A stretch of 50,255 nt of DNA, from the sequence record PV636259.1, one strand, 5' to 3'. Shown piece after piece: positions 26,467-44,983 of the stretch (its first letter is position 1; each line of letters opens with the position of its first letter). The stretch is from a phage. A program made the translations under genes and the position numbers. The notes below the pieces were generated by a model, which saw only the letters and a list, made by a program, of their open reading frames with translations, searched no databases and had not been told where the DNA came from.

Positions 26467-26488
26467 GCCGCCGTTTGGCGGTTTTTTC
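26467..26488 (+). terminator. Terminator-like hairpin (GCCGCC GTTT GGCGG + T6) between chaperone and tape measure
   Basis: Read directly. Confidence 0.5.
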
Positions 26489-26504
26489 GTATATAGGGGG
26501 TTAT

Positions 26505-29378
26505 ATGGTTGATAAGGTAGCAGGTCTGTCGCTTGACGTTGATGTGTCAACAGTGCAGCGCGCCGTCAAGTCACTGAAAGAGTTTTCAAAGGCCAACGAC
26601 CAGGCCGCTGATTCTATGGGTTCTTTAATCAATGAGTCAGAGGTTGCAAAACAGAAGGCCAAAGAACACGCTGAACAACTCAGGCGCCAGAGAAAAGAGT
26701 ATGAGGCCGTGGAGAAGGCAATCGATCCTACAGTATCAAAAATGGAAAGGTTGAAGATTGCATCTCAGCAGCTTGATAAACTCTGGCAGCAGGGAGTCGT
26801 TCCAGATGAGACGTTTTTCCGTTTGGGTGAAATGCTGGATCTGCAAAACGCAAAACTTGCTCGCAGCCGGGCTATGCTTACGGAAGAAGGTCAGGCGGCA
26901 TTGCAGGAAGCGAAAGCAAAAGAGCAGGCGGCAGCACGAAGCAAGGCGTTCATGGATGCCCTGAATGGTCAAGTTAACGCGATCGGCAAGACTCATGCTG
27001 AATTGATGGAACTGAAAGCGGCTGAGCTTGGTTTATCGAAAGAAGCAGCACCACTAATCGCAAAACTTAAAGATCAAGGCCGGGCTATGAATGCAGCAGG
27101 TATTAGCGCCGGGGAATACAGGCAAGCAATGCGAATGCTTCCTGCACAGATTACCGACGTCGTTACATCTCTTGCGTCCGGCATGCCAGTTTGGATGGTT
27201 GCCATCCAGCAAGGCGGTCAAATCAAGGACTCGTTCGGCGGGATTGGTAATACGTTTAAAGTGTTGCTGAGTTATATTAATCCAGTCACAGCAGGTATTG
27301 GCGTTCTTGTTGGTTCGTTAGGTCTTCTGGCGAAAGCTGGTTATGACTCTTACAAGTCAATAACTGATATTCAGAATGCGCTTATTGAGACTGGCGGTTA
27401 TGCAGGTGTTACGGCTGAAGATCTTGATTCAGTGTCTAAAAAGATCGCGCAGACAAGTAACTCAACCATTGGGAGTATTCGCGATATTGTAACGGAGTTG
27501 GCGAGTTCTGGTAAGTACACCCGCGAGCAGATCCAGAACATCACTAAGGCTACCGCAGAGTGGTCAGCGTCAACAGGAAAATCAGCAAGTCAAATTATTT
27601 CTGAGTTCGACAAAATCGCAAGCGATCCGGTAAAAGGCCTGAAGAAGTTAAACGAGCAATATAATTTCCTTGAAAAAGGGCAGCTTACCTATATCGATAC
27701 ATTAAGCCGGACGAAAGGAGAAACTGAGGCTGTATCAGAGGCTACCAAACTATTCGCAGACGTAATGGAAAAGCGAATGAAGTCGATCGCGGATAACGCT
27801 ACTCCTCTGGAAAAGATGTGGAGCGATATTAAACAATGGGCTTCGGACGCGTGGGGATGGGTGGGTGATCATACACTCGGGGCGCTAAACCTGATTATCG
27901 ACGTTGTTCAGGGTACAGTGATTCAGGTTAAAATGATTCTTGCTAAGGGTGATGAGTATATCTCAAACTTTATCGCCTCAGCCATAAAGGCAACTCAGTC
28001 ACTGCCTGGAATGAGTAATTTCGGCGCTGATGTACTGAAGGAGCAGGAGAATATTGTAAAAAGTTCTCGCGACAACTACGATCAGTTAGCTTCAGAGCTT
28101 GACGCTATTAACGCTCGTGTAGAAAAAGGAGAGATGGGATACATTGAAGCAATGAGGCAGCGTCGCACTCTTGAAAAGCAGTACAGCGAGGAAACTAAGG
28201 AGGCAATAAGGAAAGAAGCAGAAGAGATCGAGAAGCGAAACCGAGAACGAAATAAGCAGTCGAAAATTGTACGCTCACCGACAGAGCAATTCGACAAGGA
28301 GTTAATTTCACTCAAGGCTCAACTTAAGGTATTGCAGGAGCACAAGGAGATCGGGCAAAAACTTTCCGCACAGAGAAAGGCGTTGTTTACAACTGAGGCT
28401 ACGATCGCTGTTCTTCGCGAAGCCAGCTCTAAGCGTCAGTTGTCTGCGGAAGAAAAAGCGTTGCTGGCAAGTCAGGAGAGAGTTATTGAGCTTGCAAAAC
28501 AGAAGGCCGAGATTGGCGATCAGATTGTTAAGCAACAACAGTTGAATGATCTTACCGATAAATCTCTGAAGTTTGTCAATGAGATGACAGCGGCGACAGA
28601 ACAGCTTAACGCGTCACGCGGTCTTAGCACGCGCGAAATGGAACGACAAGCGGAACTGGCTAAAATAACCACTGATTACATCAACTCTGGAGGTAGTGAG
28701 GGAGACGAAAAACTACAGAACATGATCAAGGCACAAAATGATTACTATGCTGCGGAAGATGCCAAGCGCGCTGACTGGTTAGCTGGTGCTGAAAGCGCAT
28801 TTGCAGATTACGGCGATTCTGCAATGGATATGTACGGCAACGTGTATGATATCGCGTCAAGTTCACTTAACGGAATGAGTGATATGATGACCCAATTCCT
28901 TACTACAGGTAAGGCAAATTTTGAGGACTTTGCGAAAAATATCATTAGCATGATTATCAAGATGATTGCTCAGATGGTAATCTTCAATACGATCTCAGGC
29001 ATGACGGGAGGTAAGACATGGAGTTTTGCAAGTGGATTGACCTCTAGCGCTTCTGCGGCATCACAGGCAACTCCTACGCCTGCCGTCTCTGGTTTTAGGT
29101 CTTTATCTTCAGGCGTTGCCGTTACCTCGCTTGCTGCCGCTGCGGGTAGTGTTGCAACCTCTGGATTTAACGCATCTAAATCCGCACCGAAGGCAGCGAA
29201 CCAGTCAGCAGGCGGGACGGTCGTTGATGTTAGGGGTATGGAGGTTAAAGTTGACAACGGTTCAGATCCGAGAGGGATTTCTCAGGGCGTAGAAATGATG
29301 TTCAAAAAAATGATTCGAGAGTCTTGTTCGCAGGGCGGTGAGGTTTACAATTACATTCAGGAAAAAACAGGAGGCTAA
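26505..29378 (+). CDS. Tail tape measure protein (957 aa)
   Basis: Length, coiled-coil-rich composition, hydrophobic Gly/Ala/Ser-rich C-terminal third; start set to the ATG after AGGGGG. Confidence 0.85.
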
Positions 29379-32000: not shown

Positions 32001-35000
32001 ATGATTCAAAAAGTGATAAGCGGATCTAAAGGTGGGTCACAGAAGCCTCATAATCCAGTTGAGATGGAGGACAATCTAATCTCAATCAACAAAATCAAGA
32101 TCCTGTTAGCTGTATCTGATGGTGAAATTGACGAAACATTCAGCCTAAAGCAGTTGATGTTTAACTCAGTCCCGGTGCAAAACGAGGATGGCTCATTTAA
32201 CTTCGAGGGAGTAAAGGCTGAGTTCAGGCCGGGAACTCAGACGCAGGAATACATCAAGGGCATGGAAGATAGTTCCAGTGAGGTAACTGTAAATCGTGAG
32301 GTTACTACCGATAACCCATACACGATCTCAGTGACCAATAAAACACTATCGGCAATACGCATAAAAATGTTTATGCCTCGCGGCGTACGAATTGAAAGTA
32401 ACGGTGACAAAAACGGCGTTCGCGTTGAGTACGAGGTGCAACAAGCTGTTGATGGTGGCTCGTTTGAGACGGTGCTCACCGATGTAATCGAAGGCAAAAC
32501 AATGTCAGGTTACGATCGAAGCCGTCGCGTAAACCTTCCGAACTTCAACAATCAGGTAATATTCAGAGTTGTTCGAAAGACTCCAGACTCTAACGACTCT
32601 AACGTTGTTGATGCGATCCAGGTAAAGAGCTATGCCGAGGTGATTGATGCCAAATTCCGTTACCCTCTGACAGGTCTTCTTTTCGTCGAGTTCGACTCGA
32701 AGATGTTCCCAAACCAGTTACCTACGATCTCAATTCGTAAGCGCTGGAAGATTGTAAACGTTCCATCAAACTACGATCCGGAATCACGAACCTACAACGG
32801 CAATTGGGATGGGACTTTCAAGAAGGCGTGGACTAACAACCCTGCATGGGTTCTATACGATCTGATGATTAATCAGCGCTACGGGCTGGATCAGAAGGAG
32901 CTTGGAATCTCCGTCGATAAATGGGCGCTCTACGAGGCCGCGCAATATTGCGATCAGATGGTTCCTGATGGGAAGGGCGGGACGGAGCCTCGATACCTTT
33001 GCGACGTGATAATTCAGTCACAGACTGATGCGTACAAGGTGATTCGAGATATTTGCTCAATATTCCGTGGTATGAGCTTCTGGAATGGTGAAAGCATCTC
33101 GGTAATCATCGACAGACCGCGTGAGCCTGCGTACATCTTCACTAACGACAACGTTGTTAATGGTGACTTCTCCTATACGTTCGCAAGCGAAAAGAGTATG
33201 TACACGACGTGTAACGTGATGTTTGACGACGAACAAAACATGTATCAACAGGACGTTGAGCCAGTATTCGATCGTGAGGCGACTCTGCGGTTCGGTAATA
33301 ACGTAACCAGCATTACAGCGATAGGTTGCACGCGTCGAAGCGAGGCTAACCGACGAGGGCGATGGATTCTGAAGACCAACCTTCGCAGCACTACGGTAAA
33401 CTTCGCGACCGGACTGGAAGGGATGATCCCGACGATCGGGGATGTTGTGGCAATAGCTGATAACTTCTGGTCAAGTAACTTGACGATGAACCTATCAGGG
33501 CGCTTGCTCGAAGTGTCTGGAAGCCAGATTTTCTTGCCGTTCCGAGTGGATGCGCGCGCAGGTGACTTTATTATCGTAAATAAGCCCGATGGCAAGCCCG
33601 TGAAGCGCACAATCTCAAGTGTTAGTGCGGATGGTAAGACTATAGAGATTAACATAGGCTTTGGCTTTCCTGTGAAGCCTAACACGGTATTCGCTATCGA
33701 CCGCACAGACATTGCGTTACAGCAGTACGTCGTGACAAAAATCGATAAGGGTGATGACGATGAGGAATTTACCTACAAGATTACTGCGGTTGAATACGAT
33801 CCTAACAAGTACGATGAGATTGATTACGGTGTAAACATCGACGACCGACCGACAAGTATCGTTGAACCAGACCAGATCCCTAGACCGGAAAACGTGCAAG
33901 TGTCATCTGAGTCACGAATCGTCCAGGGGATGAGCGTAGAAACTATGATTGTTAGCTGGGATAAAGTTCCGTACGCAGTTTTCTATGATGTGCAGTGGAG
34001 AAAGGATAATGGCAACTGGCAAAACGTTCCTCAGACGGCAAACAAAGAGGTTTACGTTGAGGGTATTTACGCTGGCAACTATCAGGTTCGCGTTCGCTCC
34101 GTCGCTGGTTCCGGTACGACTTCAGGATGGTCAAATATCGTAGCTGCTACGCTGACTGGTAAACAAGGTGAGCCTGGTCGACCGATTAACCTTACAGCTA
34201 CGGATGATGTTGTTTTTGGTATCCGTACAAAATGGGGGTTCTCTGATGGTTCTGGAGATACGGCATATACGGAGTTGCAACAGTCACCGGATGGAACAGT
34301 GGATAACGCAAGTTTGCTTTCTTTGATTCCGTACCCGCAGCATGAGTATTATCACTCACCGATGCCGGGTGGGAATATTGTGTGGTATCGGGTAAGGACG
34401 GTTGACAGGATCGGTAACGTTTCTCAGTGGACTGATTTCGTAAGGGGCATGGCATCGACCAACGTAGACGATATCATCGGAGAGATTTCTGTTGATATCG
34501 AAAACTCTCCGGGCTACGAGTGGCTTGTTGATAACGCAACCGACAACGCGGCGCAGAACGCAGCTAACGCAGAGGCAGCAATAGAAAACGCTCTCGCCAA
34601 TGACAAAGACGCGATCTACATGAAGAAGGAGAACGGAAAACGAAAAGCTGAGTACACGAAATCACTGAAACTTATTGCTGATGAGACGCAGGCACGAGTG
34701 ACGGCGATCGAGCAATTGAAGGCGAGTTTTGGCGATCAGATTAGCGCTAGCAACAGCGAATTGCGTGAAGTTATCGCAACTGAGACTGGAGCGCTATCGC
34801 GTGAAATTGACCAACTCAGGGCAGAGATTGGTGATGATATCCAGGCAAGTTTGACTGATATCAGAGAGGCTATAGCAAACGAGACTGAGGCTAGAACGCA
34901 AGCTGACTTGTCGTTAAGCGCGAGGCTTGGGAATAATGAGGCGGCACTTTCTCAAAAACTTGATTCGTGGAGCAATGCGGATTCGACTGGTGCAATGTAC

Positions 35001-35450
35001 GGAGTCAAGCTCGGTCTGAAGTATAACGGACAAGAATACAGTGCAGGCATGGCTATGTCTCTGATTGGTTCCGGAGCTGCGGTTAAGGCGCAGATTTTGT
35101 TTGAGGCATCACGATTTGCCATCATGACTGGAATGAATGGTCAGACTCAGTACCCATTCGTTGTTGAGAATGGCCAGGTCATTCTAAGTAGCGCGATCAT
35201 CAAGGATGGATTTATTACTAACGCCATGATTGGTAACGCGATTCAGTCTAACAATTGGGATGGAAATCAAGGGTGGCATATTAACAAGAATGGTGCAGCT
35301 TACTTCATGAACGCAACCGTAAGGGGTGCTTTGTATGCAAATAACGGATCGTTTGCATTCAACGGGACAAACAATACGGTTCAGATAAACAATAACGGGA
35401 TCACGGTTAACCTACCTAACGGGGGCCGAGTGGTTGTTGGTGTCTGGTAA
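32001..35450 (+). CDS. Central tail fiber / host specificity protein (lambda J-like, 1149 aa)
   Basis: Size and position after I; internal fibronectin-III-like segments; C-terminal coiled-coil and beta-rich tip. Confidence 0.8.
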   Translation: MIQKVISGSKGGSQKPHNPVEMEDNLISINKIKILLAVSDGEIDETFSLKQLMFNSVPVQNEDGSFNFEGVKAEFRPGTQTQEYIKGMEDSSSEVTVNREVTTDNPYTISVTNKTLSAIRIKMFMPRGVRIESNGDKNGVRVEYEVQQAVDGGSFETVLTDVIEGKTMSGYDRSRRVNLPNFNNQVIFRVVRKTPDSNDSNVVDAIQVKSYAEVIDAKFRYPLTGLLFVEFDSKMFPNQLPTISIRKRWKIVNVPSNYDPESRTYNGNWDGTFKKAWTNNPAWVLYDLMINQRYGLDQKELGISVDKWALYEAAQYCDQMVPDGKGGTEPRYLCDVIIQSQTDAYKVIRDICSIFRGMSFWNGESISVIIDRPREPAYIFTNDNVVNGDFSYTFASEKSMYTTCNVMFDDEQNMYQQDVEPVFDREATLRFGNNVTSITAIGCTRRSEANRRGRWILKTNLRSTTVNFATGLEGMIPTIGDVVAIADNFWSSNLTMNLSGRLLEVSGSQIFLPFRVDARAGDFIIVNKPDGKPVKRTISSVSADGKTIEINIGFGFPVKPNTVFAIDRTDIALQQYVVTKIDKGDDDEEFTYKITAVEYDPNKYDEIDYGVNIDDRPTSIVEPDQIPRPENVQVSSESRIVQGMSVETMIVSWDKVPYAVFYDVQWRKDNGNWQNVPQTANKEVYVEGIYAGNYQVRVRSVAGSGTTSGWSNIVAATLTGKQGEPGRPINLTATDDVVFGIRTKWGFSDGSGDTAYTELQQSPDGTVDNASLLSLIPYPQHEYYHSPMPGGNIVWYRVRTVDRIGNVSQWTDFVRGMASTNVDDIIGEISVDIENSPGYEWLVDNATDNAAQNAANAEAAIENALANDKDAIYMKKENGKRKAEYTKSLKLIADETQARVTAIEQLKASFGDQISASNSELREVIATETGALSREIDQLRAEIGDDIQASLTDIREAIANETEARTQADLSLSARLGNNEAALSQKLDSWSNADSTGAMYGVKLGLKYNGQEYSAGMAMSLIGSGAAVKAQILFEASRFAIMTGMNGQTQYPFVVENGQVILSSAIIKDGFITNAMIGNAIQSNNWDGNQGWHINKNGAAYFMNATVRGALYANNGSFAFNGTNNTVQINNNGITVNLPNGGRVVVGVW

Positions 35451-35453
35451 CAG

Positions 35454-35482
35454 AAAGGGGCCGATTGGCCCCTTTTTTTAAT
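35454..35482. terminator. Bidirectional rho-independent terminator (GGGGCCGATTGGCCCC flanked by A- and T-runs)
   Basis: Sits between convergent J (plus) and receptor-binding (minus) genes. Confidence 0.7.
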
Positions 35483-36443
35483 ACATGTTTGGAGTGAAAG
35501 GAATTGGCATTGAAATGTTTATATTGAAGGGAAATTGAGCGCCGCTCTGAGTAGAATAGTTACCCACCCTTGTTCCGGGTGCGCTTCTCACGTTACCGCC
35601 GCTCATGCAAACTCCCTTGTATCGAATGTTATTATATCCACCCGTAACTCTGCATATCGTACCTGTTCTCAGTATTGGGAAAAATCCACCGCACCACTGC
35701 CAACCATCATTTATCGCCATAGTCCCGCCAAGAACGAATGGGCGTCTAACGCTTGAGAAAACGATCTGACCAGCAGGGTTACTCATAGTTATTCCTAGCC
35801 CAGGAGGTGGTGGAGTGTTATTAAATATTACGAGTTGCACGTATACGCTAGCGCCAACGTCATCAATCCCGTTATAGTTTGCATCCCTGCACCATATTGT
35901 ATTGCCGTCAGATTCAAGTGTTACGTTTGGATTATCCCACATACCGAAAGGAACGCCCTGTACTGGCAACTGAGCCTGACCGTTAACCTGAATCCCCCCA
36001 ACAAATGCAGCGCTCATCAATCTGGCGTTATTCGGTATAGCTGCGAAGTTCGTTGAATCGTTAACAAGTATCCCCTGATTTCCAGCTTGAGCGGGGAGGA
36101 TTTCGTAGCAGTTTCCATAAAATCTCATCCTCCTTCCACCGTGCCCGTTAAAATTACCTACCGTTATTCGTCCGGTTGAATCATTTACCTTCTGAAAACT
36201 AGTCAAATAATACACCTCCGGGATGTAATCCATATCGTCTATGTAGATAGCCTGAGATGGAAGGCAAAAAGCAGTAGACCCTGGACTCATTTGCAAACCA
36301 AAATCAAACACCGATCCAGATGAATCAACCCCGTCAGCCTGTATGGGTCCGCACCATGACGGTGCGCGAAGACCCGAAGTTATCTCCATTGCCGGGCGAC
36401 CGTCGTTTAGGTTTATATATATTCCTTGTCCCATAATTACCAC
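35478..36443 (-). CDS. Putative receptor-binding protein (321 aa)
   Basis: Gly/Asn-rich beta-type composition; encoded with a Cor-like lipoprotein gene, opposite to the tail operon. Positional inference. Confidence 0.5.
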   Translation of the reverse strand: MVIMGQGIYINLNDGRPAMEITSGLRAPSWCGPIQADGVDSSGSVFDFGLQMSPGSTAFCLPSQAIYIDDMDYIPEVYYLTSFQKVNDSTGRITVGNFNGHGGRRMRFYGNCYEILPAQAGNQGILVNDSTNFAAIPNNARLMSAAFVGGIQVNGQAQLPVQGVPFGMWDNPNVTLESDGNTIWCRDANYNGIDDVGASVYVQLVIFNNTPPPPGLGITMSNPAGQIVFSSVRRPFVLGGTMAINDGWQWCGGFFPILRTGTICRVTGGYNNIRYKGVCMSGGNVRSAPGTRVGNYSTQSGAQFPFNINISMPIPFTPNMY

Positions 36444-36667
36444 TCTTTAGTTTTGATTGACACCTTGCCGCTAAAGTTGCCCTGATCGTCGTCGGATGAC
36501 AGACCCTTGAATCGCATATCGATTTCGCCAGCAGGCACTTTCTGACCGTCAACGAATCGCATCATGCAAGATCCGTAAGCGTAAGTAACACAGTCGCCAT
36601 TCTTAAGATTCTGAGCGCAACCAGTCAGGATGAACGCGGCGGCGATAATGGTGATTAACTTTTTCAT
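36437..36667 (-). CDS. cor: Cor-like superinfection-exclusion outer-membrane lipoprotein (76 aa)
   Basis: MKKLITIIAAAFILTGCAQN: signal peptide with LTGC lipobox; small size; location beside the receptor-binding gene. Confidence 0.6.
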   Translation of the reverse strand: MKKLITIIAAAFILTGCAQNLKNGDCVTYAYGSCMMRFVDGQKVPAGEIDMRFKGLSSDDDQGNFSGKVSIKTKEW

Positions 36668-37193
36668 TCGTGTGTCCTCGTCTTTAGTGTGATTGCATTG
36701 TATGTCGCATTTACTTTTATTGCAATAGTTCGATTACAATTTTTTCGTGTAACAGGTGTCTATTTTTGTAACCGGGAGGTGTGTTACAAAATCGACCTCA
36801 TTCGACCGCAGGGAGATATGATAAAAACTCTATATAATATATATAGATAGATAATATTTAATTTTAGCTTTATATATATAATTATTGTTGTGTAACAGTT
36901 GTATATCGTGTAACAGGTGATTTGATTGATTCGTCAAATTTCTATCATATTTGTTCAAAATATAATCAATCTTGATTCTATTCATGGATATCTGTGTATT
37001 TCTAAGAAAAAGCGGTTACAAGTATTACGAAATAGACACCACATAAAAACAGGATTAAGCCATTGATTCTGTTGATGCTGATTGTAACTTGAGCGATATA
37101 GACACGCTATTACACACCAATTACATGTATCCGATTGACTAAACGCTGTTAATGGCTATAATGGATTCATCGTAAACGAAGGAGATAAGCGCA
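36668..37193. promoter_or_regulatory. Second AT-rich divergent control region (upstream of cor/receptor-binding genes leftward and the recombination operon rightward)
   Basis: No ORFs; GTGTAACAG repeats at 36746..36758, 36889..36898 and 36907..36919 plus inverted TGTTACAC at 36781..36788; 16-bp TATATAATATATATAG (36831..36846) identical to 5596..5611. Confidence 0.6.
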
Positions 37194-38258
37194 ATGTTCC
37201 AGGTATTCACATCAAGTCAGCTTTCTAATGACGAGTATCATAGCAACGAAGGTTGGGCGGCAGAGTATGTAAGCGGATCGAGCCTTGCAGAAATTTATCA
37301 AACTTGCCCGGCTAACTGGCGATTCAAGAAGAACGAGACTACTAAAGCGCTGGAGTTCGGTACTCAGTCGCACACTAACTTTGAGAGTCGAGATCTGTTT
37401 ACTGCAACGTATGCGCGTTGTCCTGCTCCGTCAGAGTTTAAAGATCTTATTACTTCGCAAACGGCACTGGCAGCAAAATTAAAATCTTTTGGCCTGAAAG
37501 GTACATCCGGTAAGCAGTACCCTGACCTCATCAAAATGATGGTTGATTGCGGTGAAGATCTCAATGTTCAATATCTTATTGAACTGATTGCTGAAGCTGA
37601 GGCGCGCGCTGAAGGAAAGCAACTGGTTGACGCTGATAAATATGATGCCTGTATGAAGATGAGGGCCATTCTTGAGCAAAATCCCGATCATGAAGCGTGC
37701 ATCAATAGCGAAACTGCGCAGCGTGAGATCTCAATCTTCGGTGAGATATCCGGCGTAAAGGTTAAGGTTAGACTTGACCATCTGGACTACAAAGAGAATG
37801 TACCAGGTCGTGTGCTGACTGGTTATGATGAGAATGGAGATCCGGTATTCGAAGACGTTATTTTCCCGGAAGCACTGATTATCACCGACTTCAAAACAAC
37901 GATGAGCGCAAATCCGTTGGAGTTCCCGCGCCTTGCATATAATCACGGGTATTATCTGAAAATGGCCTTGCAGCATGATCTGCTACGACGCGCAATCCAG
38001 GCTGGCGCTTTTGAAGGCAACTTCCCTGAAGATATCCCGATCGTAGTTAGATTGCTTGCGCAGGAGAAAAAAGAGCCTTATATCGCACTGGCTTACCGTA
38101 TGACTATGGAGCAAATCAGGATCGGTCGTAACCAGTACATTAGCGTAGTCCACACTTACAAGGCTTGCTCTGAAATGGATATTTGGCCTGGGTACGCTGG
38201 CGACGCAAGCGAGATCGAACTTGAAACGCCATCATGGGTGCGTTACCAAAATAAGTAA
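37194..38258 (+). CDS. PD-(D/E)xK-type exonuclease (354 aa)
   Basis: IITDFKTT matches the D-x-K-T nuclease motif; followed by Erf and SSB. Confidence 0.6.
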   Translation: MFQVFTSSQLSNDEYHSNEGWAAEYVSGSSLAEIYQTCPANWRFKKNETTKALEFGTQSHTNFESRDLFTATYARCPAPSEFKDLITSQTALAAKLKSFGLKGTSGKQYPDLIKMMVDCGEDLNVQYLIELIAEAEARAEGKQLVDADKYDACMKMRAILEQNPDHEACINSETAQREISIFGEISGVKVKVRLDHLDYKENVPGRVLTGYDENGDPVFEDVIFPEALIITDFKTTMSANPLEFPRLAYNHGYYLKMALQHDLLRRAIQAGAFEGNFPEDIPIVVRLLAQEKKEPYIALAYRMTMEQIRIGRNQYISVVHTYKACSEMDIWPGYAGDASEIELETPSWVRYQNK

Positions 38259-38332
38259 ACGGCACAAATAGCTAAACAAATAATTAATGAGGTGTTATAA
38301 TGCACCTCATACACCAATCAGGAGAAGTTAAT

Positions 38333-38980
38333 ATGCAATTATCACCAGAAACAAACGAAATCCTTCCTGCACTGTTCAATGCTCGCAACAAATTCGCGAA
38401 AGCAAAGAAGGACGCTAAAAACAATCACCTGAAAAACTCATACGCAACTCTTGATGCAATGATGGCGGCAGTAAGCCCAGCACTAACCGATAACGATATT
38501 ATGATCCTGCAATCAATGCTGGATACCAGTACTGAAACAACTTTCCATCTTGAAACGATGCTTATTCACAAATCCGGGCAGTGGGCCAAATTCTTCATGA
38601 TGATGCCGATTGCAAAGCGCGATCCGCAAGGCGTAGGTTCCGCAATGACGTATGCTCGACGTTACTCATTAGCCGCAGCGCTGGGGATTAGCCAGAGTGA
38701 TGACGATGCTCAGCTTGCAGTAAAATCTGTCAAGGACTGGAAGAAAGAACTTGATGCGTGTGAAGATATCGAATCACTGAAAGAGGTATGGGCTAACGCT
38801 TACCGACAGACGGACACGGCAAGCAAGTCAATCATTCAGGATCACTACAACGCACTTAAGGCTAAGTTTGAGATCGGTAAAGCTCGCGGTATTCGCCCGG
38901 CACAACCGGAACAGAAAAAACAGGTTGAAGCAACGAGCGCGAAGCCTGTACAATCTCAATCAATCACCAACTTCGAATAA
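38333..38980 (+). CDS. erf: Erf-family single-strand annealing protein (215 aa)
   Basis: KNSYATLDAMM and AMTYARRYSLAAALG motifs; start trimmed to the ATG after ACCAATCAGGAG. Confidence 0.7.
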   Translation: MQLSPETNEILPALFNARNKFAKAKKDAKNNHLKNSYATLDAMMAAVSPALTDNDIMILQSMLDTSTETTFHLETMLIHKSGQWAKFFMMMPIAKRDPQGVGSAMTYARRYSLAAALGISQSDDDAQLAVKSVKDWKKELDACEDIESLKEVWANAYRQTDTASKSIIQDHYNALKAKFEIGKARGIRPAQPEQKKQVEATSAKPVQSQSITNFE

Positions 38981-39026: not shown

Positions 39027-39443
39027 ATGCATATTATCACTGGCGAGATCCGCAAAGAACCTAAGATTATGGAGCGTAACGGCGGCAATACTTATATCAT
39101 CGAACTGGCAGAGAGCTATAAACCTCGTGATGGCGATCGAGAATACACCAACTACACATTCTTTTTTAGTGATGGTGGAAAGCCTGGCCTTGCTGACTGG
39201 TATCGTGAAGCGTTCCAGGTTGGTCGAGTTATATCTGTATCATGCGAAACGTTGAAGATCTCATCCCGTGAGCACAACGGAACGGTTTACAATTCATTGC
39301 AGGCCGCTGATTTTCCTAAGCTGGTATTCAGTCAACGAGGACAAAGCAATCAACAACAGCGATCGCCTCAGCAACAACAGCGAACTCAACAACAACCACA
39401 ACCGAACCCTCAGTCAACATTTGACGATGATATCCCATTCTGA
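39027..39443 (+). CDS. ssb: Single-stranded DNA-binding protein (138 aa)
   Basis: Gln/Pro-rich linker and acidic C-terminal tail ending DDDIPF. Confidence 0.75.
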   Translation: MHIITGEIRKEPKIMERNGGNTYIIELAESYKPRDGDREYTNYTFFFSDGGKPGLADWYREAFQVGRVISVSCETLKISSREHNGTVYNSLQAADFPKLVFSQRGQSNQQQRSPQQQQRTQQQPQPNPQSTFDDDIPF

Positions 39444-39447
39444 TAAG

Positions 39448-39475
39448 AAAGCCCCGCAATGCGGGGCTTTTCTTT
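39448..39475. terminator. Bidirectional rho-independent terminator (AAAGCCCCGCAATGCGGGGCTTTT)
   Basis: Between convergent ssb (plus) and tail fiber (minus). Confidence 0.7.
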
Positions 39476-41321
39476 ATGATTGTTTAAGTGATTTTATTTC
39501 TTCTTTTAGAGAAGATACTTGCTTTGAAAGCTCCTGTATCGAAGCTATAGCGTCAAGCAAAAGAACATTCTCATCCAGTGATAGCGTGTAATCTTCTCCA
39601 TTCATATTTCCGTACTTTCTAACGTACTGACTATCTATGCTCATAAGTTGTTGAGCTATGAACCCTCTCCTTACAGTTTTCTCCTTGTCATAATTGTATG
39701 TGAATGATCGGTATTTCATTTTCATCAAATTGTCAAGCGCCAATCTTGTTTCAATATCCTTTATGTCGCTTTTAAGTCTCTCATCTGACACTGGAGACTT
39801 GGAAAATATATAGTTGACAGTACCTGAGTTATTCCCAAACGTTATGTCGTAACTCTCAGCGTTGAACGATGTATTCCTTACAATGTCACCGTTTGGCTGA
39901 TTACCTGAAGCTATATCATAATCGTACACCTGAGATATTACCGCGTGAGGGTGAGAACCATCTGGAAAAATAAGCGAACCAAGAGAGATAAAATTCCTCC
40001 AACCGCCGTTGGATACACCAACGCCGCCACCAACTAGACCAATATAACCGCTGTACTGAGAACTCATCCATGTGTTAGCCAATGTCAAATAGGTATTACC
40101 TGGAGCATATCCAGTTCCATTTGGTACTAGACCCTTGTTAAAAATCAACTTTCCGTCCAGTTTGAAATCCCACGTTGCCGCGCCCTGCTTATATCTGTCA
40201 TTGATTGTTGTTATCCTTGTCCATATATCTATTTCATTACCTCCCTGCAATTCGAAAGAGGATCTGTACTTATCAACTTCACCAACCTTGAATTTTGAAT
40301 CAATCCTGCCGCCTGAAGAATCGGAACCTCTTGGCGGCTCAGAGTCTACATTTTTATAAATAGACCAGTCGTTTACTTTTAGGCCTTTCTCAACCCAACC
40401 CTTAGTAGTTGCGTCCATGTTGCCTTCAGGATCTTTAAGTAACTCTAATGGGGCGTCTGGCCTCAAGTTTTTCCATGATTCTAATTTATCCACAAGACCA
40501 GCTAGATTTCCATCCTTAGTTAAAAGGTTTTCAGCATTAACGCTATTTACTGCGTCTTTCGCTTCCTGAGCACTTACCGCCGCCGCATTTTTTGCGCTTA
40601 CCGCATTGTCACGCGCTACCTGAGCGTCATTTTTTGCAGAGGTCGCAGTTTGTGCTGCCGTTTGAGCGTCATTAACGTAACCAGATAAATCACCTTTCGC
40701 GTCATTAATGGCCTGAATCGCTGCCGCCTCTTCAGTGTCAATGTGAGTGATGACAGATGATTCCTTAGATCCTATATCAGTAATAGCCTGATCCTTTGCT
40801 GCATTAATACTACCTACAGCACCGTCAACAATTTGTTGAGTCTGGTTCTTGATTGAGTTAGTTTCATCTCGTGCAGCGTTGGCTGCGTCACGCGCTAATT
40901 CAGCCTGATTTTGCGCAGCTTGAGAATCAGATTTCGCCTGATTCACCTCAGCAACTATTTGCTCAAGTTTATCCATATCAAGCTGATTGATGATATCAAG
41001 AGCCGCAGCAATCTCAGTTTCTTTGCTCTGGTAGTATCGCAGCGTTTCAGCAACGTTTTGAGCTAAGCCATTTACAGTCAGTGAATCGTTAAGCAGGATC
41101 ACATACTTACCGTCAGCAGCAGTCTGACCATCCGTAGAGATAGCCTTTAACTCAGTGTCGCTCACGATATCGCTGATTACAGCCAGCTTAATTGGTTGCT
41201 CTAGGAATACGATAGTTGCACCTACTCGAATCAGAGCAAGCTGATCCTTCCATTTTGTATCGGTTCCGAGAACCGTTCCATCCGCATCCATTGATGCTGT
41301 ACCGCGTCTATATAAAGCCAT
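39474..41321 (-). CDS. Tail fiber protein with C-terminal intramolecular chaperone (peptidase S74-like) domain, 615 aa
   Basis: N-terminal virion-attachment-like region, long Ala/Gln-rich coiled coil, Gly-rich beta region, C-terminal SDERLKSDIKDIE...RRGFIAQQL... segment typical of autoproteolytic chaperone domains. Confidence 0.65.
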   Translation of the reverse strand: MALYRRGTASMDADGTVLGTDTKWKDQLALIRVGATIVFLEQPIKLAVISDIVSDTELKAISTDGQTAADGKYVILLNDSLTVNGLAQNVAETLRYYQSKETEIAAALDIINQLDMDKLEQIVAEVNQAKSDSQAAQNQAELARDAANAARDETNSIKNQTQQIVDGAVGSINAAKDQAITDIGSKESSVITHIDTEEAAAIQAINDAKGDLSGYVNDAQTAAQTATSAKNDAQVARDNAVSAKNAAAVSAQEAKDAVNSVNAENLLTKDGNLAGLVDKLESWKNLRPDAPLELLKDPEGNMDATTKGWVEKGLKVNDWSIYKNVDSEPPRGSDSSGGRIDSKFKVGEVDKYRSSFELQGGNEIDIWTRITTINDRYKQGAATWDFKLDGKLIFNKGLVPNGTGYAPGNTYLTLANTWMSSQYSGYIGLVGGGVGVSNGGWRNFISLGSLIFPDGSHPHAVISQVYDYDIASGNQPNGDIVRNTSFNAESYDITFGNNSGTVNYIFSKSPVSDERLKSDIKDIETRLALDNLMKMKYRSFTYNYDKEKTVRRGFIAQQLMSIDSQYVRKYGNMNGEDYTLSLDENVLLLDAIASIQELSKQVSSLKEEIKSLKQS

Positions 41322-41360: not shown

Positions 41361-41401
41361 GCTGATTTTATCATTGTGCTATCCGACTTGCAATGGACAA
41401 T

Positions 41402-41424
41402 AAAAAACCGCCAGAAGGCGGTCA
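41402..41424 (-). terminator. Rho-independent terminator downstream of primase (minus strand: ACCGCCTTCTGGCGGT + T6)
   Basis: Plus strand shows AAAAAACCGCCAGAAGGCGGT; primase stop lies in the 3' arm. Confidence 0.65.
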
Positions 41425-42357
41425 GAGTAGGTCACTTGCTGAGAATAACTTGGCTTGCATTCCTGAGCGGTATCCTCCAGGATTTGGGATGATTATTTTT
41501 AATTGTCGGTCGTCTGCCATGTATAAAGTCTCCTTGTCTGAAGGTTCGCACGCAACCCTTACTTCTCGATCCCCTTTATATCTGTATGCAACCATTTCCA
41601 GATTCTCAGGAGTGAAGCAGGCCCATACCTCTTGCTTTGTGTGAAATGCAATATGCTGAGCATCAATCCAATTAAGGCATAAGTAGATCGCTTTTTCTGT
41701 TTTACCAGTCACGGCAACCGAGCAACTTGTGTATTTCTTAGCGTAAAATGACTCCCTACCCTCCTCATCAATAATCAAAATATTACAAAACTCATCATCA
41801 AGACCGTCCTCGTGTACAAGTTGACATGGTATGGTGTGAAATACGCTCTCGCCGCCATCCTCGCGACGTTTTACGCCAACGTCGAATGATTCAGTAGGTA
41901 GAGATTCAAACATGCTTAGAGGTGTGTTTACGCGCTTCTCTGTACGCTCCATGACTTTCATCACCGCTTCATGATCTGCCATCATGACATTGACACCAGA
42001 TACCGGAGTTCGGCGCGCTTTCTTGTTTGCCTTGACGATGTATTCCTGCGGAACTTTTCCGAGAAATCTTCCCAGGATATTTATGCATTCGCTATACGGC
42101 ATACCAGTTAATTTCATTAGCCACCCGATCCCGGAGTCGTTACCGCATGAGTTGCAGATCGCACCTCCGTCGCCCGGAGTGTTCAGGTTATCAGTCCAGC
42201 GAAAGCGGTCTTTACCTCCGCAGTTAGGGCAAGGTTGGTGCTTCTTATTAAAAACATCATTCGGCAATCCGCAGATTGATTGGAAAGCCTCGCGCCATAA
42301 CCCCTTCATGTACGGCAAAACGTCCTCTTTCTGAAACATCATAAATTCTTCGTTCAC
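41422..42357 (-). CDS. DNA primase (zinc-binding + TOPRIM-like), 311 aa
   Basis: CPNCGG...CNSCGN zinc motif near the N-terminus; acidic IIIDEEGRES segment; position next to the helicase. Confidence 0.6.
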   Translation of the reverse strand: MNEEFMMFQKEDVLPYMKGLWREAFQSICGLPNDVFNKKHQPCPNCGGKDRFRWTDNLNTPGDGGAICNSCGNDSGIGWLMKLTGMPYSECINILGRFLGKVPQEYIVKANKKARRTPVSGVNVMMADHEAVMKVMERTEKRVNTPLSMFESLPTESFDVGVKRREDGGESVFHTIPCQLVHEDGLDDEFCNILIIDEEGRESFYAKKYTSCSVAVTGKTEKAIYLCLNWIDAQHIAFHTKQEVWACFTPENLEMVAYRYKGDREVRVACEPSDKETLYMADDRQLKIIIPNPGGYRSGMQAKLFSASDLL

Positions 42358-42416: not shown

Positions 42417-42436
42417 TTTTAACTAAAAATGCTATT
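42417..42436 (-). promoter_or_regulatory. Operator motif copy (minus orientation; AATAGCATTTTTAGTTAAAAC) forming the last six codons of the HTH gene
   Basis: N-S-I-F-S-stop is encoded by AATAGCATTTTTAGTTAA. Confidence 0.5.
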
Positions 42437-42871
42437 GGTCGTTCCGATATCTTCCTTCTTCACGACGCGCATAAATTTCTTGTTCTTGCATCGCTTCTCA
42501 AGGCACTTGCCGTTACCGTCAAACTTCAGGTCGAATCGCAACCATGCGGCACGAAATCCTTTGCACCCCTGTCGGCGGTAAGCGCGATGCGCAGCTTCAG
42601 CGCCTTGCCATGAAATCATATTTCGATCTTTCCAGCCTTGCACCGTCTGATTGCTAACTTTTAGAGCCTTTGCGCAGGCCGCAGGGCCGCCGTAATATTC
42701 GATAAGAGCATCAAGTCGCGCTCGCAGTCCGGCGCGTGTTTCTTCTTTATGAATATAGAACCCGCAACGCTGTCGAGGCTTTTTATCTTTACCGCGCCGT
42801 GTTCCGTTGTTACCATTGATGTGACGTTTATCGATTTCACCAGTTGACTCTGCGATACGTTGAATACTCAT
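42419..42871 (-). CDS. Putative DNA-binding protein with helix-turn-helix segment (150 aa)
   Basis: AKALKVSNQTVQGWKDRNMISWQGAEAA resembles Cro/CI-type HTH; basic N-terminus. Confidence 0.5.
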   Translation of the reverse strand: MSIQRIAESTGEIDKRHINGNNGTRRGKDKKPRQRCGFYIHKEETRAGLRARLDALIEYYGGPAACAKALKVSNQTVQGWKDRNMISWQGAEAAHRAYRRQGCKGFRAAWLRFDLKFDGNGKCLEKRCKNKKFMRVVKKEDIGTTNSIFS

Positions 42872-42964: not shown

Positions 42965-44983
42965 GTGACAATAAACATTAAAAAACAGATTGCATTACTT
43001 GGCGAGGACTACATAAAGCGAACTCAGGAGCGATTTACTGTTGGTGAGGTTGTTCCTTATCCGTACCAGGTTGTTGCTTATGCCGAGATCGCGAAACGCC
43101 TGTCAAATTACGAGCATCCATTCTTTGTTAAAGCGTCAGTATCTGCTGGTAAGACCATCATTTTTGCTATGGTTGCAAAGCAGTGTCAGAAAATGGGCTT
43201 AAAAATGCTCGTTCTGGCTCGCCAGGGTGAGATTGTCGATCAGGATAGCGAGGAGATTGACAACTTCGGGGTAACTAACTCCATATTCTCAGCCTCATTA
43301 GGTATTAAGTCCTGCTACTTCCCGATCGTGGTTGGCTCTGAGGGTACGGTTGCAAATGGCCTCGACAATGAGTTAGCTGATTTCGTCCCGCATGTAATTG
43401 GGATCGACGAATGTCACCAGGTGGATTGGGAAGACCTTGCGCAAGCCATTGAGGGCAAGGAAACAATGGAACAAATGAGGGGCGAGAAGGGGAAAATCAT
43501 CATGGACGGAGATATTCCTCTGATTGGTAATGATGGAAAACCTATTCTTGGAACCAAGCGAAGCCAGTACACGATCGTAATCATGGAGATGATGCGTCGC
43601 TGTAAAGAGGTTCACGGGCATGATCTCAGAATTTTTGGAATGACGGGGTCTGAATTTCGCGGCGTTGTTCCGATTCTTGTTGAGAATCCAAAGGCGTTAG
43701 GATTCTGGCGTGAGCGCGTTACTGATATCGACACTAATTATCTTATTGAGTTTGGCTCTGTCGTTCCGACGATATTCGGCTCAACAGACGGAGTTCACTA
43801 CGATCTTGATAAGTTCAAGGCGTCTAGCGAGGACGGCGTACAGGACTTTACAGAGAAAGATATGAAGGCAATGGAAGATGAGATACTTCATGATAAATCT
43901 CTGACTCAGCGAATCATGCAAATGGTCGCAAAAAAGGCCGAAGAGCGTAACGCGGTACTGATTACATGCGCAGGGGTGCGTCACTGCAAAGAGGCGGCGG
44001 CGGCGCTTCCACCAGGAAGCACCTATGCAATCATCACTGGCGACACAGACACCAAAACGCGCAAGAAAATCTTGGACGATGTGAGGGCTGGGAAAATTAA
44101 ATACACCTTTCAGGTAATGGCGCTCACTACTGGCGTTAATGTTCCAAATTGGGATTTCAGTGTCATACTCCGCAAGATAGGCTCGCTCACTCTGTTGATT
44201 CAACTTTTGGGTAGGGGTATGCGACTGCTTAAATCCTGGCAGGTTGCTGAAGGAATGGTTAAGCAGGACCATCTGGTATGGGATTTTGCAGGTACGATGG
44301 ATGAGTTGGGCCAGCTTTATTTCGATCCGATACTTGAGCAGGCGCAATTCCAAAAGCGTTTTGAAAATGGCAAAGATCCGAAAAAATGTCCGAAATGCGG
44401 TTGCGTAAATAGCTTCTATGCTCGACGATGCGTTAATGTCATTGATGGTGAACGTTGCGATCATTTCTGGACTTCTCAGATTTGTGAGGACCAGGTTGAC
44501 GAGCGCACCGGTAAAATCCTTGTTAAAGGATGCGGTGCAGAGAATGACGTTGTGGCCCGAGTCTGTCGTTGTTGTGATGTCTCACTTGTCGATCCGAACC
44601 TGAAGTTGTCCGGTAAGGCGTACACTAAGAATGACTGGTACGAGGTAAAGAATTTTGAAGTTACGCTAACCAAAAACCAGAAAGGCATAATATACAAATA
44701 CACGCTGATTAACGACGATGGTGATGAGTTCAAGGCGTATGAAAAATTCTTCCCCGAGTCTGACTCTAAGATTTGCGGTACGCTATGGAAAACTAAAGGT
44801 GTACTTCCTCATGTGTCAGATCCTAAAATGCGTCGCTACTTTATCGGAATGAAGAACGCCATCAAGATCGTGCAGTACGCACATCATATCGCTCACCCGG
44901 TACGCGTAACTCATCGTCGCAACCAGAAGAAAGAAGATATTATCTCACGTAAAGACTTCGGTATGGAGGATATCCCGGAATGA
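42965..44983 (+). CDS. Superfamily-2 DNA helicase with C-terminal zinc-finger region (672 aa); GTG start
   Basis: Walker A SAGKTIIFAM, DEAH-like GIDECHQV, C-terminal KKCPKCGC...CRCCDVS Cys clusters. Confidence 0.75.
   Translation: MTINIKKQIALLGEDYIKRTQERFTVGEVVPYPYQVVAYAEIAKRLSNYEHPFFVKASVSAGKTIIFAMVAKQCQKMGLKMLVLARQGEIVDQDSEEIDNFGVTNSIFSASLGIKSCYFPIVVGSEGTVANGLDNELADFVPHVIGIDECHQVDWEDLAQAIEGKETMEQMRGEKGKIIMDGDIPLIGNDGKPILGTKRSQYTIVIMEMMRRCKEVHGHDLRIFGMTGSEFRGVVPILVENPKALGFWRERVTDIDTNYLIEFGSVVPTIFGSTDGVHYDLDKFKASSEDGVQDFTEKDMKAMEDEILHDKSLTQRIMQMVAKKAEERNAVLITCAGVRHCKEAAAALPPGSTYAIITGDTDTKTRKKILDDVRAGKIKYTFQVMALTTGVNVPNWDFSVILRKIGSLTLLIQLLGRGMRLLKSWQVAEGMVKQDHLVWDFAGTMDELGQLYFDPILEQAQFQKRFENGKDPKKCPKCGCVNSFYARRCVNVIDGERCDHFWTSQICEDQVDERTGKILVKGCGAENDVVARVCRCCDVSLVDPNLKLSGKAYTKNDWYEVKNFEVTLTKNQKGIIYKYTLINDDGDEFKAYEKFFPESDSKICGTLWKTKGVLPHVSDPKMRRYFIGMKNAIKIVQYAHHIAHPVRVTHRRNQKKEDIISRKDFGMEDIPE

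Follow-up and report, generated by a model that had tools for sequence, protein, structure and literature searches.

Does the open reading frame of 615 amino acids that lies between the recombination genes and the primase of this phage encode a side tail fibre with a self-cleaving C-terminal chaperone, as the original prediction had it, and is its position one where host-range cassettes are exchanged? The window, which is the whole stretch of DNA analysed here, has 50,255 bp and a GC content of 45.5%. Over the first 25 kb it matches numerous Tunavirus genomes at ~92% and, judged from its sequence, the window has the character of a complete genome of a Tunavirus (T1-like, Drexlerviridae).

The reading frame is real: it extends over positions 39474..41321 of the minus strand, starts with ATG and encodes a 66.8-kDa precursor, and a ribosome binding site (AAGGAG, 41335-41330) is present 8 nucleotides 5' of the start codon. 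The protein matches PHROG tail fibre families (phrog_1980, E=8.6e-84) and the gene is, over its full length, 97.5% identical at the DNA level to genes annotated as 'tail fiber protein' in the Escherichia phages JMPW1 (gp52), phi2013 and IME167, which confirms that it codes for a tail fibre. The DNA identity to the DELF2 counterpart is 94%; the Sf11 phage has no fibre of this kind. The gene is of an already known kind and stands in its usual place, and near-identical copies have been deposited and annotated. It has the same locus, the same N-terminus and the same S74 end as the lateral fibres of other Drexlerviridae (JMPW1 gp52, Shfl1 p56, LeonhardEuler; PMC8594841), from which it does not differ in kind; in its distal 330 residues it follows JMPW1 and not Shfl1. 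We consider it very probable that the protein serves a T1-like siphophage as its lateral tail fibre, is processed by an S74 chaperone and carries a glycan-binding tip.

The C-terminal chaperone domain

The protein ends in a Peptidase_S74 intramolecular chaperone domain of 12.1 kDa with predicted auto-processing activity (aa 512-615; 39477..39788, minus strand; Pfam PF13884 / IPR030392). The Pfam profile is matched at the extreme C-terminus by aa 512-567 with 46.7 bits (E=4e-12), above the gathering score of 22 bits that serves as the curated cut-off, and 117 of the 120 best homologues contain the same domain. The last 130 residues also match the C-termini of fibres in the PDB (8jov_1, E=1.4e-4; DT57C LtfA 8hqz_d, E=9e-4), with VSDERLK of the fibre aligned to ASDERLK of 8jov_1. 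All AF2 models in this study are of monomers only. The model of aa 287-615 has a mean pLDDT of 75.7, with values of 88-96 in the chaperone part, and shows the order of elements that is typical of the S74 fold, namely a mixed alpha/beta body and, after it, a long helix at the C-terminus (model residues 298-328), the element with which this fold builds its trimeric coiled coil. When it was compared with the PDB using Foldseek, the chaperone part matched the intramolecular chaperone domain (ICA) of MyRF (7dc3, E=1.4e-5, TMt 0.67) and the chaperone of the K1F endosialidase endoNF (3gw6, prob 0.99). A search of BFVD returned 241 matches at E<=0.001, DT57C LtfA among them; of the matches within the top 50 that have a name, most are S74 or long tail fibre proteins. 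Profile, PDB sequence matches and predicted fold, together with the conserved residues described below, bear out the prediction of a C-terminal S74 chaperone. The K1F endosialidase (3GW6) and MyRF (7DC3) share the domain family PF13884 and the predicted fold with the fibre, at sequence identities of 9-20%, but their chaperones have other upstream passengers: that of K1F is a sialidase beta-propeller and stalk, that of MyRF a transcription factor.

The domain starts with Ser512-Asp-Glu-Arg-Leu-Lys517 (39771..39788, minus strand), which contains the predicted catalytic dyad, Ser512 and Lys517, and the predicted scissile bond is Val511|Ser512. Serine and lysine are five residues apart, the same spacing as between Ser1264 and Lys1269 of T5 pb1. 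The dyad of T5 pb1 cuts after Thr1263, cleavage is blocked by the mutation S1264A, and the processed fragment alone competes with the phage for the receptor (PMC4690869). By homology, cleavage at Val511|Ser512 would yield a mature fibre of 511 amino acids and 54.7 kDa and a chaperone of 12.1 kDa. The literature searched yielded neither virion proteomics nor a cleavage experiment for any T1-like fibre.

An alternative is that the S74 domain has degenerated into a remnant, that the virion contains the uncleaved full-length chain and that the C-terminal coiled coil serves as a mere trimerisation tag. The domain is indeed short, with 104 amino acids in comparison to 133 in T5 pb1, and the DNA that encodes it has an unusually low GC content (35.3%). 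However, in an alignment of 41 homologues with tips that are down to ~20% identical, the only invariant columns are Ser512, Lys517 and Gly553, and the local motif S-D-x-x-x-K is present in all 41 proteins; an invariant dyad in proteins whose tips have diverged this far points to selection on catalysis. Moreover, the match to Pfam spans the whole model (positions 1-57 of 58), and the confidently predicted fold resembles that of active ICA domains. A degenerate remnant is thus very unlikely, and we continue with the reading of a functional, self-processing chaperone.

Close parallels are T5 pb1 and DT57C LtfA (4UW7/4UW8, 8HQZ), which are likewise side fibres of siphophages with a C-terminal S74 domain and a Ser-x4-Lys dyad, and in which the receptor-binding tip stays masked by the chaperone until cleavage removes the latter. 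Sequence similarity to these proteins is weak and restricted to the stalk and the chaperone. They are also much longer (1396 amino acids for T5 pb1, 1076 for DT57C LtfA) and have a different N-terminal anchor. Sequence similarity between their tips and the tip of the fibre was not detected, and the Foldseek search of the PDB with the monomer model returned no match to 4uw7 or 4uw8.

Anchor, stalk and distal tip

The N-terminal 76 amino acids (aa 1-76; 41094..41321, minus strand) are modelled by AF2 as a small beta-barrel with six strands at residues 4-76. This barrel is the presumed virion-attachment domain, which would anchor the fibre to the virion. Our comparison of homologues shows that the N-terminal part is conserved across Drexlerviridae fibres, in agreement with the report that the fibre gene of this family is conserved solely at its 5' end (PMC8594841). 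Many Tunavirus fibres align over exactly aa 1-286 with 88-91% identity and then diverge into other tips. Similarity extends to Klebsiella Webervirus depolymerases: aa 1-177 match the N-termini of DpK2 (7lzj) and Depo32 (7vyv/7vz3) with E~1e-42, and the identity over aa 1-105 is ~70%. The entries 7lzj and 7vyv were considered as a solved structure of the anchor and rejected, as residues 1-190 of DpK2 are unmodelled in 7lzj. Foldseek searches of the PDB with the N-terminal model gave no phage structural match, just generic small barrels (N-terminal barrels of ATPase and Uba1, E~1e-2), and the literature searches turned up no T1-like tail structure that includes the fibres.

The barrel is followed by an alpha-helical stalk (aa 84-259; 40545..41072, minus strand) that is rich in Asn and Gln and contains 21% Ala. 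AF2 predicts two helices, 84-113 and 116-259, with pLDDT values of 84-92, and the stalk, about 175 residues long, is presumably a trimeric coiled coil, as far as can be judged from a monomer model. It is weakly similar to residues 477-579 of DT57C LtfA (E=7e-7). No tandem repeats were found in the DNA that encodes it.

Between stalk and tip lies a conserved junction (aa 260-286, SVNAENLLTKDGNLAGLVDKLESWKNL; 40464..40544, minus strand), in which L267, N272 and L273 are invariant in the homologue alignment. The similarity to most Tunavirus fibres stops here, and on sequence evidence the junction is a recombination joint. A linker (aa 287-318), which has low confidence in the AF2 model, connects it to the distal tip, the predicted receptor-binding domain (aa 319-511; 39789..40367, minus strand). 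The tip is beta-rich and rich in Gly and Ser; in the model it is all-beta, with pLDDT values mostly of 70-86. The Foldseek search of the PDB with the C-terminal model returned matches to the chaperone only (7dc3, 3gw6) and nothing credible for the tip, which is to be expected because the model is the monomer of what is presumably an intertwined trimer.

Homologues of the tip are found in the T-shaped fibres of the Gordonclarkvirinae, podoviruses with genomes of 77 kb (ECBP2_0013, MN05; AnnaHegner Gp10, PMC11990801). The C-terminal ~290 residues of the ECBP2 and MN05 fibres are 73-76% identical to aa 319-609 at the protein level, and the tip itself is homologous to their residues ~438-630. The matched region sits downstream of the Collar (gp12-like) domain of these fibres, which is why tip and chaperone correspond to the region described as 'T5-like RBD2' plus IMC of T-shaped fibres (Humolli et al., PMC11990801). 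The Gordonclarkvirinae fibres have the gp12-like Collar domain (RBD1) in addition and attach via a separate proximal fibre, whereas in the protein described here just one distal domain is carried by an anchor and stalk of the T1 type.

The N-terminal match to DpK2 and Depo32, which are solved depolymerases, raises the question of whether the protein could be an enzymatic tailspike that degrades capsule or O-antigen, rather than a binding fibre; a few proteins that share its N-terminus do carry a pectate-lyase-like or another C-terminal domain in place of S74 (P0115, the pectate-lyase-like case, and P0120). But the match to the depolymerases ends at residue ~177, ahead of their beta-helix (residues 317-642 in DpK2), and the Pfam search of the protein found no profile of a hydrolase or lyase. 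The distal domain comprises only ~190 residues, which are predicted to form short antiparallel sheets; neither the Pfam search nor the model shows a central right-handed parallel beta-helix with a catalytic site, and the homologues of the tip are non-enzymatic fibre tips. We therefore regard a depolymerase as most improbable and the protein as a binding fibre.

The locus and the exchanged distal cassette

In the window, the fibre gene is preceded by genes for a PDDEXK exonuclease (37194-38258), Erf (38300-38980) and an SSB-like protein (39027-39443), all on the plus strand. The latter has 138 amino acids with a Gln/Pro-rich tail that ends in DDDIPF, and our reading of it as SSB is based on this C-terminal motif. 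On the downstream side of the fibre gene are the primase (41422-42357, minus strand) and, beyond it, a Cro-like regulator (42419-42871, minus strand) and a helicase (42965-44983, plus strand). The tail operon, with the genes of the tape measure (26475-29378, plus strand) and of a gpJ-like tip protein with a Phage_Tail_Tip domain (32001-35450, plus strand), ends ~4 kb from the fibre gene and is encoded on the opposite strand; the gene is thus, as predicted, encoded away from the tail operon. Downstream of the gpJ-like gene is a locus of the receptor-binding protein (RBP) type that consists of the genes for a DUF6453 protein (35478-36443) and a lipoprotein (36437-36667). In Drexlerviridae, the BASEL study matched RBP-type loci of this kind to outer-membrane protein receptors (PMC8594841).

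The location between recombination genes and primase had been taken as characteristic of horizontally exchanged host-range cassettes. It is not special to this phage, because JMPW1 and Shfl1 have the same gene arrangement around the fibre and because in all Drexlerviridae the lateral tail fibre locus lies between conserved recombination and primase/helicase genes (BASEL, PMC8594841, S1C Fig). The position is a conserved trait of the family, and it is neither unusual nor a sign of recent insertion. Exchange did take place, but what is exchanged is the 3' 330 codons and not the gene.

The evidence for this exchange comes from a mosaic map, for which the protein was compared with 122 homologues by BLASTP; the main set was obtained with the full-length query, as a search with the C-terminal 324 amino acids alone returned 8 proteins. 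The exchanged distal cassette (39474..40463, minus strand) comprises aa 287-615, that is linker, receptor-binding domain and chaperone, plus the stop codon. Shfl1 is 91% identical to the window at the DNA level up to position 39471, where a hairpin ends, and again from the breakpoint at 40468, and no DNA similarity to Shfl1 was found between 39472 and 40467. With similarity absent in this interval and high in both flanks, the swapped unit corresponds exactly to codons ~286-615; its limits are the conserved junction at one end and the stop codon and terminator at the other. JMPW1 contains the cassette with 98.9% identity. Outside the Tunaviruses, and in addition to the podoviruses ECBP2 and MN05, the distal part has protein identities of 70% to RCIP0319 (an unclassified phage of 69.5 kb), 61% to the Dhillonvirus TH13 and 43% to the Tequintavirus EC100, and the mosaicism with fibres of unrelated phages that had been anticipated is therefore present. 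The GC content of the cassette is 40.4%, in comparison to 45.5% for the genome. The exchange with podoviruses is old rather than recent, since the DNA identity of the cassette to the ECBP2 fibre is just 68%. We are evenly divided on whether receptor-binding domain and chaperone together are a portable, self-sufficient host-range unit, which forms the sole tip in this phage, acts as the second of two receptor-binding domains in the T-shaped fibres of Gordonclarkvirinae and passes from siphoviruses to podoviruses or back at a joint that is always the same; this joint would consist of the motif at aa 260-286 at one end and of the stop codon and terminator at the other.

The left edge of the swapped cassette coincides with a GC-rich hairpin (39447-39471), which separates the SSB-like gene from the convergent fibre gene. 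The folding energy of this hairpin is -19.7 kcal/mol on both strands (z -3.9 and -4.3). Since a U-rich run comes after the stem whichever strand is read, the hairpin is plausibly a bidirectional terminator. Bidirectional terminators had been proposed for both ends of the fibre gene, and this does not hold for the 5' end. The hairpin at this end (41406-41423) begins at the stop codon of the primase gene and has a U-tract (UUUUUUAUU after the stem) on the minus strand only, which identifies it as a predicted intrinsic, one-way terminator of the primase gene. It is followed by a putative sigma-70-like promoter for the fibre (41393..41365, minus strand; TTGCAA, 17 nt, TG-n-TAAAAT), predicted by consensus match only. 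Because a one-way primase terminator and then a promoter precede it, both recognised by consensus, the fibre gene is probably its own transcription unit.

No other long gene of fibre type lies outside the tail operon, and the tip is variable; the gene could in principle encode the terminal receptor-binding protein, a central fibre that triggers DNA ejection. This is the least probable of all alternatives, as a gpJ-like tip protein and a separate RBP-type locus are present in the genome, and this locus varies independently of the fibre tip: in the window it is of the Shfl1 type and not of the JMPW1 type, while the fibre tip is JMPW1-like.

Proposed mechanism and implications for T1-like phages

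For the lateral fibre with a self-processing chaperone, the following sequence of events can be proposed. Trimerisation, cleavage, unmasking and the nature of the ligand are deduced from T5 pb1 and K1F endoNF; domain identities, conservation of the dyad, predicted fold, synteny and mosaic boundaries were established in this analysis. Three precursors of 615 amino acids would assemble, with the S74 chaperone of 104 residues trimerising and acting as a template on which the beta-rich tip next to it folds. Correct folding of the tip would bring Ser512 and Lys517 into position; the lysine would activate the serine, the bond Val511|Ser512 would be cut by it and the chaperone would leave. The mature fibre of 511 amino acids would sit on the tail tip with its N-terminal barrel and project from it via the helical stalk. 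The unmasked tip (aa 319-511) would then make a reversible first contact with a variable surface glycan, for which O-antigen or LPS is the most likely candidate, and irreversible binding would be the job of the separate gpJ/RBP module (gpJ-like protein, DUF6453 protein and lipoprotein). According to the authors of BASEL, the use of O-antigen by lateral fibres of Drexlerviridae has never been directly demonstrated (PMC8594841). Host range would change through swaps of the 3' 330 codons, with the junction at aa 260-286 and the terminator/SSB region serving as homologous flanks.

Beyond the correct annotation of the gene, the significance of these data is small. The map of modules (anchor 1-76, stalk 84-259, junction 260-286, cassette 287-615, predicted cut at 511|512) provides exact joints for the engineering of host range in T1-like phages, and it suggests that the tip should be produced as a recombinant protein that still carries its chaperone and be left to process itself. 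The BASEL authors could not link the 'T5-like RBD2' to host-range data. The single-domain context of the fibre described here could help to assign a ligand to this domain of the T-shaped fibres and, if the tip and its chaperone are indeed a portable module, phages like this one could reveal what the 'RBD2' binds.

Exchanged domains and possible recombination joints in the lateral tail fibre

Among homologues of the lateral tail fibre (615 aa; 39474-41321, minus strand), similarity ends at a few recurring positions, at residues ~279-295 and ~323-337, and this suggests preferred recombination joints around the conserved motif NLLTKDGNLAGL...NL (residues 260-286, window 40464-40544). The segment encoding the C-terminal Peptidase_S74 chaperone (39477-39788) has the lowest GC content within the gene, only 35%, compared with 45.5% for the genome. 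Some relatives (the homologues P0115 and P0120) share this N-terminal part, a T1-type anchor with its stalk, but carry a pectate-lyase-like (PF12708) or a Phage_tail_C_2 (PF25670) domain in place of an S74-ending tip; one anchor thus serves fibres and spikes alike.

A putative SSB protein next to the fibre gene

The 138-aa protein encoded before the fibre gene (39027-39443, plus strand) has no Pfam match and is annotated as 'hypothetical' in the T1-like phages JMPW1 and Shfl1. Its tail is rich in Gln and Pro and its last residues are DDDIPF; an acidic C-terminal tip of this kind is typical for bacterial SSB proteins. The protein is probably the SSB of this phage.

The locus downstream of the gpJ-like gene and its relatives

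[quoted passage not shown] The AT-rich ~530 bp that separate the lipoprotein gene from the exonuclease gene (36668-37193) contain no convincing ORF, only ORFs of 46-53 aa.

The locus is unlike that of JMPW1, which has cor and two plus strand membrane proteins at this position, but matches Shfl1 with ~91%. The opposite is true for the lateral fibre tip, which is of the JMPW1 type and not of the Shfl1 type, so that the phage's two modules for host recognition do not have the same nearest relatives.
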